From NCBI RefSeq assembly GCF_003334385.1, contig NZ_QOWN01000046.1: a stretch of DNA of 34,434 nucleotides; one strand, 5' to 3'. A program made the translations under genes and the position numbers. This stretch comes from Escherichia coli (GTDB lineage Bacteria; Pseudomonadota; Gammaproteobacteria; Enterobacterales; Enterobacteriaceae). Numbering within the stretch: position 1 is the stretch's first letter; each line of letters starts with the position of its first letter. Under the pieces are notes generated by a model. The model did not search any database. It was given only the letters and a program-made list of their open reading frames with translations, and was not told the origin of the DNA. Shown here in pieces: positions 11,864-18,376 of the stretch.

Positions 11864-12304
11864 ATGTTCGGGGTGATTATGAAAACTAAAACATTCCGGT
11901 TCCGGAAATATAAAAAGAAAAACGTTCTGCTGCAAATAATAGTTTCCAGGAAACAAGTGATATTGTTACGCAATATTATGACGGACTCTTTATTGTTTTG
12001 CTCGATAGGTTTTGTGTTTATGAATATGTGTGATTCAAAATATACGTTGATTTCTGGTGAGGGTGGTTTACGTGCTGATTGTGCCGATTATTTATTCTTT
12101 GCCGTATATGCAATTGCGTTGCTAATGATAATTTTATGGATGACAGCTTCAGTTATTTATTCTATTGAAGAATATACGAGTCAGGAAAAATACGGTAAAA
12201 GTAAAGTCTATAGCTACTTCTGGTTTTTTATCTGGTTTTTTGTTTTTAACTGTGCTGTTTATTCTTCTCTGAAGGCAATAAATATAAAAGATATAATCAG
12301 CTAA
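11864..12304 (+). CDS. Hypothetical small membrane protein (AT-rich islet)
   Basis: 146-aa ORF with hydrophobic segments in a low-GC region; convergent with the next ORF. Confidence 0.35.
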   Translation: MFGVIMKTKTFRFRKYKKKNVLLQIIVSRKQVILLRNIMTDSLLFCSIGFVFMNMCDSKYTLISGEGGLRADCADYLFFAVYAIALLMIILWMTASVIYSIEEYTSQEKYGKSKVYSYFWFFIWFFVFNCAVYSSLKAINIKDIIS

Positions 12305-13184
12305 TGGCAGCAGAGGGATTCACGATAAAACCAATGACGTAACCTGTTCCCGAGCAATAAAGGACTGTTGCCGGGGATGTTTTTCGTGTATCCCATATCT
12401 TTGAATCTGTATCAGATGGCGTGTGTTCAATGACCGATAAACTGGCCGGAATGGTCGTGTTAAAAAAAATACTTAACGCGCCTGTAAATAAAGCAGCGGG
12501 AAGAGAAATGCTGGAATGATATATCCATGTGGAGAGTATCAGTGCCAGAATAGCATTTCCTGTATTTATATAATAAAACCAGTCGTTATGGCGCAGATAC
12601 CGGGTAACGGAGAGCCCCCTGGCGGACACGCCATCCGGGAAATGCAGCGCCAGAAGTAGGAGATAAATAACTGCTATTTCAGCCAGTGTAACAGGCAGCA
12701 TAATGGAAAGACGTGACAGGAATGACATCAGCATGTCACTTATGACAGGATTAAGTCGTGTTGAAGATAATTCGTAAATGCCGGTTGTAAAACAGAACAT
12801 ATAACCCAGTCCGGCATAAGCAATAATGGAAACCGGCGTCAGTTTGTTTGATTTGTATGTTTTATACGTTCTCGTTGCTTCTTTAATGGTTAAAATTGTC
12901 AGCAGGGATGTGAGAATCATAACGGGTGGTATATATATGCAGATATATACCTGCAAAGGGTACTCAGTATCGTATACCCGGGTTGTTAATATAACGGACA
13001 GACTCAATAAGGATATATTTCCGAAATGAAACCAGCGATACTGTTGAAGATACTGGAAAACAGTGATGCCTGAAGAAAATGTCCATTTGCCGCGAGCATA
13101 AATAACAACCCAGAATAAAGAACTAATGATACATATCATCAGTATGCCGGGTAATATTGCAAAAATAAATGATGATGTGCTCAT
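12297..13184 (-). CDS. Hypothetical polytopic membrane protein (AT-rich islet)
   Basis: 295-aa ORF with multiple predicted transmembrane helices; low GC relative to the neighbouring pil and yqiK genes. Confidence 0.45.
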   Translation of the reverse strand: MSTSSFIFAILPGILMICIISSLFWVVIYARGKWTFSSGITVFQYLQQYRWFHFGNISLLSLSVILTTRVYDTEYPLQVYICIYIPPVMILTSLLTILTIKEATRTYKTYKSNKLTPVSIIAYAGLGYMFCFTTGIYELSSTRLNPVISDMLMSFLSRLSIMLPVTLAEIAVIYLLLLALHFPDGVSARGLSVTRYLRHNDWFYYINTGNAILALILSTWIYHSSISLPAALFTGALSIFFNTTIPASLSVIEHTPSDTDSKIWDTRKTSPATVLYCSGTGYVIGFIVNPSAAIS

Positions 13185-13376
13185 TATTAAATCTCCATCA
13201 GCATGGTGATGCTTAAATTTTTACGGTTGTGAGGTGCGTAATAAATATCATGTGTAGTTGTGAATAATAGCGTCAGCAACATATATAAAAATAATCTGCA
13301 TTCCTGAAAAATATCGTGGTTGTGAAATATTTAATTTTTACCCCCTTTTATGGGGGATGAAAAGCAGGCTGTCAGG

Positions 13377-13694
13377 CTATAACTGAACGCGGTTTCTGGA
13401 TTTTGGTGCTAATGTCACATCTTTCCATTCACAGCTGCTTCCGGGGATACGCTCTTTGCGTCGTATTATACGGGAGTTCTGACACACAATAATTAAGCCA
13501 TTGTCTGCCGTCTGAAATGGCATTATAGCGATGTTTATATCTTCTGTTGCAGGAATATAACTGACTTTCTTTTCACATGTATTGGTGTATATGACAACTC
13601 TGAATTTTTCTGCGGACATTTTCAATCCTCTTTTAAACCAGAATATCCCGTGAGGGCATTCTTTGTGAAAAAGATGCCGGAAAAATTCCGGCAC
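13377..13694 (-). CDS. Hypothetical protein immediately downstream of the flotillin gene (true start possibly the internal Met MSAEKF)
   Basis: ORF begins 6 nt after the yqiK-like stop on the same strand, consistent with co-transcription. Confidence 0.35.
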   Translation of the reverse strand: MPEFFRHLFHKECPHGIFWFKRGLKMSAEKFRVVIYTNTCEKKVSYIPATEDINIAIMPFQTADNGLIIVCQNSRIIRRKERIPGSSCEWKDVTLAPKSRNRVQL

Positions 13695-13699
13695 GGGGA

Positions 13700-15394
13700 T
13701 TAAACCTGTTGTGGTTCTGAGTTATCCGGAGCGGTTACCGGTTCGCTGACATCCGGAACCTTTTCCGGGGCAGGCATGACCAGTGGACGTGTCAGGGCTG
13801 TAAGTCCTTCACCGGATAAACCCACCTCTTTCAGCAGGGAGTCGATGAGCGGAGCCTGTGTACGGTAAGCCAGAGCGGCGGTTACTGCCTGTTCAGCGAG
13901 ATTTCCGCCACTTATGTCGGTTGTTGCTGTTTTACCGCGGGTAACACCGCCATTCAGACCATCCACCTGAATGATTTTAATACCGTCAATGGATTTCATT
14001 GGTTCTGTGGACTTCTCTATGACGGCAGGTAATGCATCCAGCAGGGCAAGACGGAAGCGGAGGCTGGTCTGCTCATCCGAAAGCACGTTAATGGCATCGT
14101 TCAGTGCGCGCTGTGCTTCTGCTTCTGCCAGACCTTTCTGACGGGTGGCCTCCGCCAGTTCAATAATTGCTGCTGCCTGGAGTTCGGCTGCTTCTTTTTC
14201 AGCCTGTGCGCAAACCGTCAGTTCAACCGCTTTCGTTTCAGCTTCCTGAGCAGCAGCAATCAGGGCAACCTGTTTGGTACGGTCGGCCTCCGCAGTCTGG
14301 CGGGTGGTTTCCACATCCTGCTGGGCCTGTACGGCCTCAGCCAGTGCTTTACTTGCCCGGGCTTCTGCCTGTGACTGCTCTTCCGATTTTGCCGCCACGG
14401 CAATGGCTCTGGCCTGGCTGGCGATTTCGGTTGCCTGCTGTTGCTCAATTTCCCGTATGGCCACTTCCCGTTCGGCTTCGACCTGGCGGGTACGCACTAT
14501 CTGCTGTCGTTCGATTTCGGCTTCCTCTATCTTACGTTCAGCCAGAATTCGCGCGGATTCTGCTTCACGACGTCGTTCAGCTTCAATAGCAGCAATACTG
14601 GCACTCTGCTCTGCCGTACGGGTTTTTACCCGTTGTTGTTGCTCCAGAGTCATGAAGGCTTCCTGCTGTTCAATCTCCAGACGTCGGGAGAGTGCATCCC
14701 GGTTTTTTTCCCTGATGGCCACTTCAACATCCTGCTCAACTTCGTTGCGTTCGCGGCGACGACGTTCTGTTTCCTGGGTCAGAAGGGTCAGGCCTTCAGC
14801 ATCAAAGGCATTGTCAGGATTAAAATGTACCCGTGCAGTCTGGTTGAAACTTGTCAGCGACACACTTTCAAGCTCCAGACCGTTTTTGGATAAGTCTTCC
14901 GCAACGGTGTTCTGCACACCCTGAACAAAGTTCTCGCGGGCATCCTGTAAATCCTGCATGCTCATTCTGGCCGCCGTGGCCCGTAGGGCATCAACAAATT
15001 TATCCTCGACCAGACTACGCAGATCTTCAGGTGTGAGCGTGCGTTGTCCCAGCGTCTGGGCTGCAGTGGATATTCCTTCGGCTGATGGTTTTACCCGAAG
15101 AAAAAAGGCAACGGCAACATCAACACGCATGCGGTCGCGGGTTATGAGACTTTCAGCCGCTGCACGACTGACTTCCAGCTTCAGGGTGTTCATGTTGACG
15201 GGAATTGTTTCGTGAAAAATAGGCATAACAATTGCACCGCCACTCATTACCACTTTTTGGCCTCCCAGACCTGTGCGGACAAAGGCCTGCTCTGCCGATG
15301 CCCGGCGGTACAGGCGGGCAAATATCAGCCCGATAACGAACAGGGTGAGGACCAGCGCTATAACGGTAAACAACCATCCCGGAAGATTAAACAT
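13700..15394 (-). CDS. yqiK: Flotillin-like SPFH/band-7 inner-membrane protein (YqiK-like)
   Basis: 564 aa; N-terminal transmembrane helix, SPFH-like domain, long Ala/Glu/Gln/Arg-rich coiled-coil region; matches E. coli YqiK (about 553 aa) in architecture. Confidence 0.8.
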   Translation of the reverse strand: MFNLPGWLFTVIALVLTLFVIGLIFARLYRRASAEQAFVRTGLGGQKVVMSGGAIVMPIFHETIPVNMNTLKLEVSRAAAESLITRDRMRVDVAVAFFLRVKPSAEGISTAAQTLGQRTLTPEDLRSLVEDKFVDALRATAARMSMQDLQDARENFVQGVQNTVAEDLSKNGLELESVSLTSFNQTARVHFNPDNAFDAEGLTLLTQETERRRRERNEVEQDVEVAIREKNRDALSRRLEIEQQEAFMTLEQQQRVKTRTAEQSASIAAIEAERRREAESARILAERKIEEAEIERQQIVRTRQVEAEREVAIREIEQQQATEIASQARAIAVAAKSEEQSQAEARASKALAEAVQAQQDVETTRQTAEADRTKQVALIAAAQEAETKAVELTVCAQAEKEAAELQAAAIIELAEATRQKGLAEAEAQRALNDAINVLSDEQTSLRFRLALLDALPAVIEKSTEPMKSIDGIKIIQVDGLNGGVTRGKTATTDISGGNLAEQAVTAALAYRTQAPLIDSLLKEVGLSGEGLTALTRPLVMPAPEKVPDVSEPVTAPDNSEPQQV

Positions 15395-15420
15395 AGTGAG
15401 AACCTCTGTATATGTCGGGA

Positions 15421-16041
15421 TTAAAGAACATCCGGCCAGGGATTCAGTTCGCCCAGCCAGCAGGAACCGGAAAGACGGCAGACAATAATCACTTTGTCTC
15501 CTCGTCTGAATTCTTTCCCGGCCTCCGGCTCCAGCAACAGGTAATGAACCTGCCCGAAGCGGTCTGTGAAGCGACCTTCACAGGGGGAACCCGCCACTGC
15601 GTGATAACCGGTGATGGTGGCCATACAGCCGATGAATGCCTCCTCGGTGAGCGCCGTTGTTTCATCACGGGGTAACCAGGGGGCAATCAGTCTGCCGGTG
15701 CGGTGTACGAGAGGACATGTCAGCAGCAGGCAAAGTGGTGTAAGGAGAATGTTCGGGGCAGGAGCCTGCAGCAGATGAATAATAAGACCCTGCAGGAGAA
15801 TGCCGGATATACCAAAAAAACCTGCCAGCATACAGAGGACGATCAGCAGGGGGATCCGTCCGATGTTCAGCCAGTCCAGCGCCTCTCCTGTCAGACCCTC
15901 CGGTAAATCAGGTGTATCCATAGCTGAAGAGAGGGAGTGTCCGCAGAGCAGGGCGATAAGTTCAGCGATACCAGTAAGCAGAACAAAAGTCAGGGCTGCC
16001 AGATAGGGTGCGTTATACGCGGTAAGTAACGTCAGTGTCAT
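15421..16041 (-). CDS. yqiJ: NfeD-like inner-membrane protein (YqiJ-like), partner of the flotillin
   Basis: 206-aa membrane protein directly upstream of the yqiK-like gene with a 27-bp gap; size matches YqiJ (about 209 aa). Confidence 0.7.
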   Translation of the reverse strand: MTLTLLTAYNAPYLAALTFVLLTGIAELIALLCGHSLSSAMDTPDLPEGLTGEALDWLNIGRIPLLIVLCMLAGFFGISGILLQGLIIHLLQAPAPNILLTPLCLLLTCPLVHRTGRLIAPWLPRDETTALTEEAFIGCMATITGYHAVAGSPCEGRFTDRFGQVHYLLLEPEAGKEFRRGDKVIIVCRLSGSCWLGELNPWPDVL

Positions 16042-16307
16042 TTTTCCTCCTGTGGCAGGTCAGTCAAACAACATTATGGCGTGAAGCTTCCGCTTCTTTA
16101 ATTGTCAGAAGAAGCATATCGTCAGTCATCAGAAGACAAGGGGATGTCTGCAGGAGGGGATGATAACAACAGAAGCCTCACGCCGGAATGCGCTTTATGA
16201 CAACCGGAGAGGACGGATAATCAAAAATGGGACATCCACATCAGCAAACCGCGATTTGCGAAAAAAAGTCTGCGGAGAGTGGCTGCCGTTGTGGCTGTCC
16301 CGGTATT

Positions 16308-17093
16308 TCAGTGTAAAAGCAGACTGTTGTCCATGCCCCATTCCTCTTCCGCTAAACCTGAATGGCCCACATGAAGAATGCGTGACAGCATATTTCTGCC
16401 GCTGCCGTTCAGACTGCATTCGCGCCCGTGTGCGAGCATAAAACCTTCATCCCGGAATATCTCTTCAACCTCAGACGTGTTGATGGTGGCCGGATGGATT
16501 AATGAAAATGCCACCGGTCTGATCATTCTGCCCGTGGTGGAAAAGGTGTCCCCGGTGCTGTTCAGCTGCAGGATATGACGTTTCCCGGTCTGTGCGCGGG
16601 AAAGTGTCTCACTCAGTAACTGGTCATTCCATGCGCACGTGCCAATCTGCCATCCCAGACTCCTGCACGTGGCAAGCGCTGCTCGGAAGCGGTACAGGTC
16701 ATACAGTGCAGCGTTGTGGCCACTTTCCAGCAGTGATTTCAGCGTGTTCTCTACCGGTATGTCCGTATTGGTGGCCAGCAGTTTGCGCAGGGCGGTGAAC
16801 TCTTCAGGCATCCCCCTGAACTCACTCATCTGTCGGGCGGAATCAAGCCAGTTCAGCAGGAAGCGCCGGCGACGTCGTTCATTGTTGATGCTGTCCGGGG
16901 AGGTGGAGAGCGCTTCAAGCATATTCTCCAGTAACTGAATGACAGGGTTTTCCGGGGATTGAATGGTCATAACGATGTCCTGAAAAAAAATGCCCGGCAG
17001 CCGCTCTCCGTACACGCAGGTGTCACCGTTGCTGGGCATTGGGGAAAAGATGGGGAAAAAAAGCCCGGCCATAAAGGCCGGGAAAGTCGTCAA
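16308..17093 (-). CDS. Hypothetical protein (probable start at the internal ATG about 16970, MTIQSPENP..., with an AGGA 7 nt upstream)
   Basis: Open frame between the NusG-like gene and yqiJ; no family recognised. Confidence 0.5.
   Translation of the reverse strand: MTTFPAFMAGLFFPIFSPMPSNGDTCVYGERLPGIFFQDIVMTIQSPENPVIQLLENMLEALSTSPDSINNERRRRRFLLNWLDSARQMSEFRGMPEEFTALRKLLATNTDIPVENTLKSLLESGHNAALYDLYRFRAALATCRSLGWQIGTCAWNDQLLSETLSRAQTGKRHILQLNSTGDTFSTTGRMIRPVAFSLIHPATINTSEVEEIFRDEGFMLAHGRECSLNGSGRNMLSRILHVGHSGLAEEEWGMDNSLLLH
17056..17082 (-). terminator. Candidate rho-independent terminator after the NusG-like gene
   Basis: GC stem CCCGGCC / GGCCGGG with a 5-nt loop, followed on the minus strand by a run of 7 T (plus-strand A run at about 17056-17062). 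Confidence 0.45.
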
Positions 17094-17109
17094 ATGAAGA
17101 CAGCAATTT

Positions 17110-17751
17110 TCATGTCAACGCTCCGTCATCAGATACCAGGTGCAGGAGCAGGGCGATCCTCGACTCCGGCAGAGGCTGGGCATCAAGCCGGAGGAGGTAC
17201 TGGTAACGCGCTTTTGTCAGCCAGAGGGTGGAGGCAGCATCCAGCTCCTCCCTGGCTGCCGGATTGAGCGCAGGATCCGGGTACACTTTCATCAAAGACT
17301 GAACGATATCCTCCCTGACGGTTTTGATTTCACCGGCCATTTTCACGAAGTCCAGAAAGGCACTGTGACGGCGAAGGTGAGTGAAGCTGTGGCTTTCGGG
17401 GTCTGCTTTCAGGAAAAAGTAACCGGGAAACACGGCGTGTATATGTCGACGGTAACCACAGACTTTATCCGTGCGGCGGACCTTTTTCAGTATCAGGGGT
17501 GTCCAGGGAAGGACGTGTTGTTCGGAAAGCCAGGAAAAGAGATGTTCGCGGTTTTTGCCGGCAGGGATGTACTGTGCCAGATACCAGTTGCGTTGATGTA
17601 ATTCACTGATATTCAAAATCCGGAACGCTCCGCGAAAATCGATCCCCGCAGGGGGGCTTCGATGTTGTTGTGAACGGCGAATACATAAAGCATGTGTCGG
17701 AAACAGCGGCTGACCCACGTTCAGCCTGGCCTGCAGTTCTGACAGGCACAT
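17110..17751 (-). CDS. NusG/RfaH-family (NGN domain) transcription antitermination-like protein; start uncertain, probably downstream of the listed Met
   Basis: The segment NWYLAQYIPAGKNREHLF...LFPGYFFLK resembles the RfaH/NusG N-terminal domain (WY...LFPNY.F). IncI1 plasmids are recalled to carry a NusG-like transfer activator. Confidence 0.6.
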   Translation of the reverse strand: MCLSELQARLNVGQPLFPTHALCIRRSQQHRSPPAGIDFRGAFRILNISELHQRNWYLAQYIPAGKNREHLFSWLSEQHVLPWTPLILKKVRRTDKVCGYRRHIHAVFPGYFFLKADPESHSFTHLRRHSAFLDFVKMAGEIKTVREDIVQSLMKVYPDPALNPAAREELDAASTLWLTKARYQYLLRLDAQPLPESRIALLLHLVSDDGALT

Positions 17752-18296
17752 GATTTACGCACTCTTGTAAGCCTTGTGGACGGTTTCGAGGCGGGCAAAA
17801 ACCGACAACTCCTGCAAACAGGATTAATGGCTGGAAAATATATTACATAAGGATGTATCTGTGGCAAGAGTGAAGATAAGCAGTTGAATAGATCGTTATA
17901 TTTGATAAGACAGCATATTATTCTATATCTGATGTTGTGTGCGGGATATTAGATCGTTTAAAAAAATTCGGCGATCTCTTCTACTGGAAAAGAAGAAAAA
18001 AGCAGCATAAAAGATCGTTTGTGAAATTGTTCATTTTTTTGACACAGTTCAAAAAAACGACGCTTTTTAGGGGGTTAAAGAGGGCAACTGTAACCCTGAG
18101 AAATCGTGTCGGCTTTTCAAAGCGGTGGAAAAGGGGTATATTGCGGATCGTTATTCAGTGGCTTTTGGGATCCTCGCGATCCGGAAAGTCAGAAAACGGC
18201 AGGATGCGCCATAAGGCATTCAGGATGTATGGCAGAAACGACGGCTGTTTGCCGGGGCCGGAAGGCTGAAAAAAGTTTCAGAAGACCATAAAGGAA

Positions 18297-18352
18297 AACC
18301 CCCATAATCTTCTTATCGAACTTGGCGGAACGTAGAGAAGATTATGGGGGCC
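18297..18352 (-). ncRNA. inc: Inc RNA/RNAI-type antisense RNA region (stem-loop I) of the replication control system; exact transcript ends not determined
   Basis: Long perfect stem (ACCCCCATAATCTTCT / AGAAGATTATGGGGG) whose loop contains TTGGCG, the hexanucleotide recalled for IncI-alpha/IncB antisense-target kissing loops; about 25 nt upstream of the leader peptide gene. Confidence 0.5.
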
Positions 18353-18376
18353 TCACAGAATACGGGGTAAGTATAT

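Follow-up and report, generated by a model that had tools for sequence, protein, structure and literature searches.

Within a 34,434-nt stretch of Escherichia coli DNA (contig NZ_QOWN01000046.1), hereafter the window, positions 13377-17751 hold a flotillin gene of the yqiK type and the gene of its NfeD-like partner, yqiJ, which lie between the transfer regulators traB and traC on one side and the thin-pilus gene pilI on the other. To judge from its sequence, this region is the transfer-regulatory head (traBC) of a conjugative plasmid of the I-complex, group IncB/O/K/Z (IncK2/Z). Taking the evidence together, we consider it rather probable that the yqiJ-yqiK pair (yqiJK) of this IncK2/Z head is ancient, selected and dispensable, and that it is expressed with the pilus (pil) and transfer (tra) genes through antitermination by TraB.

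The 4.4-kb stretch matches 556 plasmid records, the best of them at 99.8% identity, and the hosts of these records are almost all Escherichia and Shigella. The best-matching plasmids are typed IncK2/Z, MOBP and MPF_I, and the locus is a standard part of the backbone of I-complex IncB/O/K/Z plasmids, that is, an ordinary feature for this plasmid group. On the minus strand the order is traB leader, traB, terminator T1, traC, yqiJ, yqiK, terminator-like hairpin T2 and pilI, followed by further pil and tra genes. The first-pass annotation of this DNA had listed a NusG/RfaH-like gene, an unknown 220-aa protein, a flotillin and an NfeD-like partner on the pil strand. All four are found there; however, the 220-aa protein is not unknown, as it shares 38.5% identity with TraC from IncI1-type plasmids (tblastn, E 2e-34, 82% of the protein), is annotated as traC in several records and follows traB directly, in synteny. 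Pfam gave no significant match to TraC, and the DUF2913 domain annotated on its relatives was undetected here.

Hundreds of records already carry annotations of this locus, and papers name its genes, so that the finding itself is already known. For instance, plasmid yqiJ and yqiK are named in a figure legend on Shigella IncB/O/K/Z plasmids (PMC8549364), and yqiK on IncK plasmids has been proposed as a candidate for reduced biofilm formation (PMC7824781). Two papers on IncK2 biology (PMC6803427, PMC12987596) do not mention these genes, and we found no study in the literature testing the function of plasmid yqiJ or yqiK. As far as the searched literature shows, three things have not been written up so far: how yqiJK has been selected and lost, the terminator that keeps its position after traB, and the invariant blocks of the traB leader. 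We regard them as modest but testable additions. Current understanding is unchanged for now, the genes being already annotated and their functional link a proposal.

Origin, selection and loss of the yqiJK pair

By every sequence feature tested, the pair belongs to the YqiJ/YqiK (flotillin/NfeD-like) family. YqiK had been described as a full SPFH/flotillin protein with a long coiled coil, and this description holds: the protein matches the Pfam models Band_7 (PF01145, 1.4e-18, residues 35-183) and Flot (PF15975, 1.5e-38, full model length), and its residues 196-420 are 67% Ala, Glu, Gln, Arg or Lys and contain no proline, which fits a long coiled coil. A hydrophobic anchor at approximately residues 6-26, read from the sequence, aligns with chromosomal YqiK. 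YqiJ matches YqiJ_N (PF21001, 3.4e-15) and YqiJ_OB (PF07290, 2.7e-14), and its gene lies upstream of yqiK across a gap of 26 nt, the same spacing as in the chromosome, in agreement with the tight flotillin/NfeD pair that had been proposed. A sequence search of solved structures gave no match for either protein. The pair resembles FloT-NfeD2 (YuaG/YuaF) of Bacillus subtilis in that an SPFH flotillin and an NfeD-type membrane and OB-fold protein share one operon (PMC10434171). In contrast to that system, which belongs to another phylum, the present pair stands in a plasmid context, and YqiK was rejected as an ortholog of FloT, since it reaches 79.5 bits against the cut-off of 700 for the FloT equivalog (NF058507).

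Many long open reading frames (ORFs; up to 216 aa) overlap yqiK on both strands, at window positions 13971-15424. We read them as by-products of the repetitive coding sequence, rich in Ala, Glu, Gln and Arg codons, and not as genes.

The pair was also described as chromosomal in E. coli, which is correct, chromosomal yqiK being present in 5424 of 5426 complete genomes. The chromosomal and plasmid pairs agree in gene order, in the 26-nt spacing and in Pfam architectures; they differ in that the window copy is plasmid-borne, inside the transfer-regulatory region between traC and pilI, and in the C-terminal tail of YqiK. Identity between plasmid and chromosomal proteins is 81% for YqiK and 54% for YqiJ, and synonymous sites are saturated (pS 0.74-0.78). 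A recent capture from the E. coli chromosome was rejected on the basis of this saturation and of the low identity of YqiJ. In a collection of 5.8 billion proteins, the nearest chromosomal relatives of YqiJ are 56-62% identical and none exceeds 62%; the 62%-identical protein is encoded next to glgS, a chromosomal context. In the E. coli chromosome (locus L003, 2919-7517), yqiJK lies near the chaperone-usher fimbrial genes yqiH and yqiI, which have the same orientation as the pair and are separated from it by glgS in the opposite orientation; this proximity to fimbrial genes may be a coincidence.

Among related plasmids, the arrangement traB-traC-pilI-pil occurs without yqiJK in IncIgamma/I1, in Yersinia pYR4 and in three more distant TraB loci. 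By contrast, a diverged metagenomic locus (L008) has the same order as the window, traB-traC-yqiJ-yqiK-pilI, with traC overlapping yqiJ by 29 nt, and its proteins are 80% (TraB), 87% (YqiJ) and 93% (YqiK) identical to those of the window. Between these two loci, the synonymous divergence (dS) of yqiJ (0.58) and yqiK (0.76) is comparable to the values of traB (0.56) and traC (0.74), while the ratio of nonsynonymous to synonymous divergence (dN/dS) is lower for the pair (yqiJ 0.12, yqiK 0.046) than for the regulators (traB 0.21, traC 0.20). Consequently, the pair has long accompanied traBC and has been kept by strong purifying selection. Comparison of these loci thus shows yqiJK to be an old insertion between traC and pilI that is limited to this plasmid lineage and one sister lineage. 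The plasmid flotillins of Alphaproteobacteria were judged unrelated, as they are less than 60% identical and mostly lie on non-mobilizable replicons.

About half of the plasmids with this backbone no longer have an intact pair, as a result of at least two types of deletion and several frameshifts. Only 269 of the approximately 540 plasmids with this type of TraC keep at least 80% of YqiK, and among complete E. coli, 233 of approximately 456 matching plasmid records, in 228 of 5,426 genomes, keep at least 80% of the pair. In the deletion that we call type A (96 records), positions 15988-13801 have been removed at a 10-bp direct repeat (CAGCCCTGAC), leaving an in-frame yqiJ'-'yqiK fusion of 47 aa (144 nt). 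Type B, found in pDV45 and other IncK2 poultry plasmids (75 records), lacks 16265-14183 and 14001-13674. Further independent frameshifts and truncations of yqiJ were seen as protein clusters. In pDV45 (locus L006, 1506-1686), the 181-nt remnant of yqiK is 100% identical to window positions 14182-14002, while its flanks are 92% and 89% identical, which suggests that recombination between lineages took place before or during the deletion.

The deletion-bearing plasmids are typed conjugative. One of them, pMS7163B, has traC at 12691-13353, a 144-nt ORF at 13620-13763 and pilI at 13844-14086, the exact geometry of type A. This plasmid conjugates, and 35 genes required for the process have been defined in it by transposon-directed insertion-site sequencing (TraDIS; PMC10286972); as only the fusion remnant is present, these 35 genes were defined without yqiJK. 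Because so many plasmids typed conjugative have deleted or broken the pair, yqiJK is shown to be dispensable for conjugation and a required role is excluded, save that the chromosomal copy might substitute for the plasmid one. The idea of a membrane-microdomain organisation linked to the pilus or the transfer machinery, which had been put forward for this locus, finds no support as far as a requirement is concerned, as about half of the plasmids have lost the pair and yet are typed conjugative, and pMS7163B conjugates. What remains for yqiJK in transfer would be a facilitating, non-essential role.

TraB, its leader and the terminators

In R64 and pESBL, transfer depends on TraB and TraC, which act as its positive regulators (PMC5801416). 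In pESI, both the transcription of pil and transfer itself need TraB (PMC5013300), and in the I-complex plasmid pMS7163B traBC is required for conjugation, with a TraDIS log2 fold change of about -5.3 (PMC10286972). The traBC of the window is like that of these IncI1-type plasmids (R64, pESBL, pESI) in identity (TraB 63%, TraC 38.5%), in its position next to the replicon and upstream of pilI, in having a terminator after traB and conserved leader blocks, and in the requirement for transfer just described (PMC5801416, PMC5013300, PMC10286972). Unlike them, the window has yqiJK between traC and pilI, and no traA was seen upstream of traB.

TraB matches the Pfam NusG model (8.8e-5), with no match to the Pfam KOW domain, and its scores fall below both RfaH equivalog cut-offs (TIGR01955, 39 bits against 144.5; NF006534, 38.9 against 124). 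The family is small, with 54 cluster representatives among 1.84 billion. In an AlphaFold model built with 25 family members (predicted local distance difference test score, pLDDT, 86.6), TraB consists of an NGN domain and, after it, a C-terminal domain made of helices. Residues 10-110 are modelled at pLDDT above 90, with a fold that matches the N-terminal domains of RfaH and NusG, and the C-terminal helices (119-128, 135-146 and 150-162) at pLDDT 69-83. The best fold match in the PDB is full-length autoinhibited RfaH (5ond_A, E 3.4e-9, 156 aligned columns), so that TraB is predicted to fold like autoinhibited RfaH. The fold also matches PrfaH, a factor of IncX3 plasmids (9ik0), with which the sequence match (E 1.1e-7) covers the N-terminal domain only.

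Although TraB shares with RfaH and the IncX factor PrfaH (ActX) a predicted NGN domain with an alpha-helical hairpin C-terminal domain, a gene position at the 5′ end of a long one-directional transfer array and, with PrfaH, conserved elements in its own 5′ leader, it differs from both in its weak sequence similarity (39 bits against the RfaH cut-off of 144.5; a match to the N-terminal domain only of PrfaH), in the lack of an ops element of the GGCGGTAG type and in its requirement for a second protein, TraC. As it failed both the score cut-offs and the ops search, we place TraB outside RfaH sensu stricto, and it is best described as a distinct family of plasmid NusG paralogs, alongside PrfaH/ActX, with an RfaH-like architecture.

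The start of traB deserves a comment. The 213-aa NusG-like ORF at 17110-17751 is over-extended mechanically: in an alignment of six lineages, its first 135 nt carry frame-breaking indels in Yersinia pYR4, and the real start is consequently placed at the TTG of position 17616. The start codon is GTG in IncIgamma and ATG in pYR4, whose TraB proteins are 63% and 51% identical, respectively, to that of the window.

The leader upstream of this start contains two conserved blocks (Table 1). Block 1 is exact in all 8 I-complex and pYR4 loci, though TraB identity drops to 51%, and each plasmid has one exact copy; an ops-like loading site is one possibility for its role. Degenerate copies of block 1 were considered as additional sites and rejected, because matches with 3 mismatches are over-represented on both strands and in both halves of the plasmid; this surplus most likely reflects a codon-like CTG/GAA/CAG composition. 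Block 2 (GGATCG.TT...GCG, 17645-17631) occupies positions -30 to -16 from the traB start and is invariant across the aligned lineages. The hairpin that precedes it keeps its stem with differing sequences, CCCC/GGGG in K/Z and pYR4 and TCCA/TGGA in IncIgamma, and the fold of the whole leader is no more stable than that of shuffled sequences (z = 0.14). In IncX3, the target of PrfaH lies at -42 to -25 in its own 5′ untranslated region (PMC11880322). The position of block 2 resembles that target, and by analogy block 2 might be tied to the loading of TraB.

A search of the leaders of the traB unit and of pilL for an ops-like element had been suggested; no element of the GGCGGTAG type was found in the tra or pil leaders. 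In the search for the canonical ops (GGCGGTAGnnTG, up to 2 mismatches), the overall number of matches was near chance (34 observed, 23 expected). Rfam gave nothing in the tra leaders, its only matches being the replicon control RNAs (PK-repZ, CopA-like), which lie outside this finding.

The hairpin noticed earlier near 17056-17082 is a good intrinsic terminator, T1. Its stem-loop (17082-17064, -18.8 kcal/mol, z = -3.2) lies 28 nt past the traB stop codon and is followed by T7. The same hairpin is present in L008, IncIgamma and pYR4, and in two more distant loci (L017 and L015, where TraB identity is down to 44% and 39%) the same position is taken by a terminator whose sequence is unrelated. 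In total, 6 of 7 TraB lineages have a terminator directly after traB, and 1 further locus is without one. The second hairpin, T2 (13694-13674, -13.4 kcal/mol, z = -3.0), keeps its stem in L008 with a different loop and is absent from type B deletion plasmids.

The proposal of a long antiterminated operon running into pil receives indirect support from the predicted fold of TraB, T1, the leader blocks, the published requirement for TraB in pil transcription and transfer (PMC5013300, PMC10286972) and the co-directional array, in which all genes from traB to excA (approximately 40 kb) lie on one strand in the near-identical complete plasmid CP056818.1; the leaders hold no canonical ops. Transposon data offer additional indirect support for TraB as a processive antiterminator of its own operon. 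In pMS7163B, insertions in ORF160 (the yqiJ'-'yqiK fusion), pilI and pilK were enriched after surface mating, with log2 fold changes of +2.6 to +3.2 (PMC10286972, Table A), and the transposons used carry an outward-reading promoter (PMC10286972). Although the authors of that study neither discuss the enrichment nor make this claim, it would fit a situation in which transcription into the downstream pil and tra genes is limiting.

The spacer between traC and yqiJ (266 nt) contains a conserved non-coding element, present in one copy per plasmid, whose homologue is found in IncIgamma between traB and traC (local alignment score 34; shuffles 17.2 +/- 2.1, 0 of 1000). Its hairpin shows compensatory changes in the stem, GCTTCTT/AAGAAGC here and TATTTCTT/AAGAAATA in IncIgamma. 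As a consequence of this homology, the region upstream of yqiJ is assigned to tra regulation and not to imported cargo. The element that precedes traC in IncIgamma stands before yqiJ in this lineage, which implies that the regulatory region has been rearranged.

Explanations for the pair

According to the reading favoured here, TraB would probably load, as an RfaH-like NusG paralog, onto RNA polymerase somewhere in the conserved leader of its own gene. Transcription would then run past T1, and probably past T2 as well, to cover traC, yqiJK, pilI and the genes beyond. In this way, the cell would produce the flotillin and its NfeD-like partner along with the proteins of the pilus and of type IV secretion. 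We speculate that YqiK, anchored in the inner membrane, forms SPFH assemblies with YqiJ, and that these might buffer or organise the membrane during the insertion of secretin, pilus and secretion complexes; the outcome would be an advantage that depends on circumstances (a reduced cost, or improved mating in certain hosts or settings) and is easily lost, and not an essential function.

Several observations weigh against the joint reading. The frequent loss of yqiJK means that any benefit must be conditional; moreover, the value added by a plasmid copy is doubtful because nearly every E. coli host has a chromosomal one, and chromosomal yqiK mutants show little phenotype, the native protein being undetectable (PMC10434171). 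Co-transcription of these genes and read-through of T1 and T2 are what we infer from the layout of the sequence. The tra and pil leaders hold no canonical ops, even when 1 mismatch is allowed, and the role of the conserved blocks in the traB leader could lie in translation or in the control of a promoter instead of in TraB loading. Finally, the spacer upstream of yqiJ holds a weak promoter-like match (16067-16040), so that, with 266 nt available, yqiJK could have its own promoter.

This last point leads to an explanation that is possible, if rather doubtful: that yqiJK is autonomous cargo with its own promoter, gives the host a benefit apart from transfer (membrane-stress tolerance, motility or biofilm modulation) and lies beside traC by accident. 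In addition to the spacer and its promoter-like match, the terminator-like hairpin directly after yqiK would bound a two-gene unit, plasmid yqiK is the proposed candidate for reduced biofilm formation mentioned above (PMC7824781), and loss in many lineages fits niche-dependent cargo. However, traC overlaps yqiJ in L008, which leaves no spacer and argues for operon membership there, the spacer element of the window is tra regulatory DNA by its homology to the IncIgamma traB-traC leader, and in both plasmid lineages that bear the pair it occupies this single site, with traC on one side and pilI on the other. It is very unlikely, on the other hand, that the pair is a functionless hitch-hiker decaying by drift. 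Such decay could produce the many independent deletions, frameshifts and truncations in hosts that already have a chromosomal copy (5424 of 5426 genomes), but about half of the plasmids keep the two genes intact, and the dN/dS values of yqiK and yqiJ lie below those of the essential regulators traB and traC. Low ratios over a synonymous divergence of approximately 0.6-0.76 point to long-term selection on the YqiJ and YqiK proteins.

Purifying selection, together with the location of the pair, which has the transfer regulators on one side and pilI on the other, all with one orientation, would also agree with a required scaffold for the assembly of the thin pilus or of the I-type secretion system, and type IV secretion proteins of Agrobacterium have been reported in detergent-resistant membranes (PMC8656257). 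Nevertheless, we consider this the least probable of the explanations, given the deletions in plasmids typed conjugative (types A and B), the conjugation of pMS7163B with the fusion remnant only, and the presence of the same pil and tra machinery without yqiJK in IncI1, pYR4 and other relatives; this refutation is incomplete insofar as the chromosomal copy could partly substitute.

The TraB-dependent reading can be carried further. The proposal that yqiJK is a transfer-coupled membrane module, switched on by TraB antitermination along with the secretin, pilus and I-type secretion genes, which cuts the envelope cost of transfer-gene expression or raises mating efficiency conditionally (for example in liquid mating or in particular hosts), is tentative and, in our estimation, unlikely. 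If true, this would be the first case of a defined physiological client for a bacterial flotillin, and it would account for the conservation of yqiJK in some epidemic lineages and its loss in others. Gram-negative flotillins are still without a clear function, and chromosomal yqiK mutants are almost free of phenotype (PMC10434171). A second, plasmid-borne yqiJK occurs in about 4% of complete E. coli genomes (228 of 5,426), and the plasmids that bear the pair and their naturally deleted close relatives constitute a ready natural experiment on flotillin/NfeD function. Likewise, the terminator after traB and the invariant leader blocks are concrete targets for understanding how TraB switches on transfer.

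Coordinates and other features of the window

The genes and non-coding elements discussed above are collected in Table 1.

Table 1. Genes and elements of the traB-pilI region, in window coordinates.
Feature	Position	Strand	Description
Leader block 1, CTGTC(A/T)GAACTGCAG	17731-17745	minus	candidate cis element, approximately 115-130 nt before the traB start
Leader hairpin CCCC-TGC-GGGG, then block 2	17631-17656	minus	-40 to -16 from the traB start codon
traB	17110-17616	minus	168 aa, TTG start; plasmid NusG paralog, RfaH-like architecture
Terminator T1, CCCGGCC-TTTAT-GGCCGGG then T7	17054-17082	minus	intrinsic terminator between traB and traC
traC	16308-16970	minus	220 aa; partner regulator of TraB in I-complex transfer
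Conserved non-coding element	16092-16162	minus	block CATCCCCTCCTGCAGACATCCCCTTGTCTTCTGATG (16162-16127) and hairpin GCTTCTT-N10-AAGAAGC (16115-16092)
yqiJ-like gene	15421-16041	minus	206 aa; NfeD-type membrane and OB-fold partner of the flotillin
yqiK-like flotillin gene	13700-15394	minus	564 aa; SPFH/Band 7, long helical region, Flot
Hairpin T2, GTGCCGGAA-TTT-TTCCGGCAT then CTTTTT	13666-13694	minus	terminator-like, directly after yqiK, upstream of pilI
pilI	13377-13619	minus	80 aa; first gene of the thin-pilus (type IVb) cluster

The pilI gene corresponds to a 105-aa ORF (13377-13694) in the program-made list, the real gene being 13377-13619; its product matches Pfam PilI (1.2e-31) and is annotated as PilI in the matching records. 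TraB, TraC, YqiJ, YqiK and PilI gave no match to the PADLOC defence models, and NCBIfam has no family for TraC, YqiJ or PilI.

The replicon adjoins traBC, with repA at 18454-19326 and PK-repZ and CopA-like RNAs upstream of repA. Both RNAs fall within 18290-18441, where the PK-repZ pseudoknot scores 168 bits; the CopA-like antisense RNA, on the opposite strand, has a CGCCAA loop and, at 37.5 bits, does not reach the gathering score. A 282-aa protein of the plasmid maintenance region (20820-21668, plus strand) contains a DnaQ-like DEDD 3'-5' exonuclease domain.

Between pilI and pilL there is an insert of low GC content (approximately 39-42%; 11864-13184) with a 295-aa hydrophobic ORF (12297-13184, minus) and a 146-aa ORF (11864-12304, plus), neither of which has a family match. 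The insert is also present in NZ_OY019090.1, while CP056818.1 and CP088840.1 have an ORF of approximately 320-340 nt instead. An island of very low GC content (28-31%) extends over 27300-32150, between two ORFs for IS3-family transposases (26169-27185 and 33213-33902), and contains five or six co-directional ORFs on the minus strand. Three of these are without a family match, one encodes a weakly Lnt/nitrilase-like protein, and an ABC ATPase has its best match, at 187 bits and below the cut-off, to the 'putative bacteriocin export ABC transporter' model.

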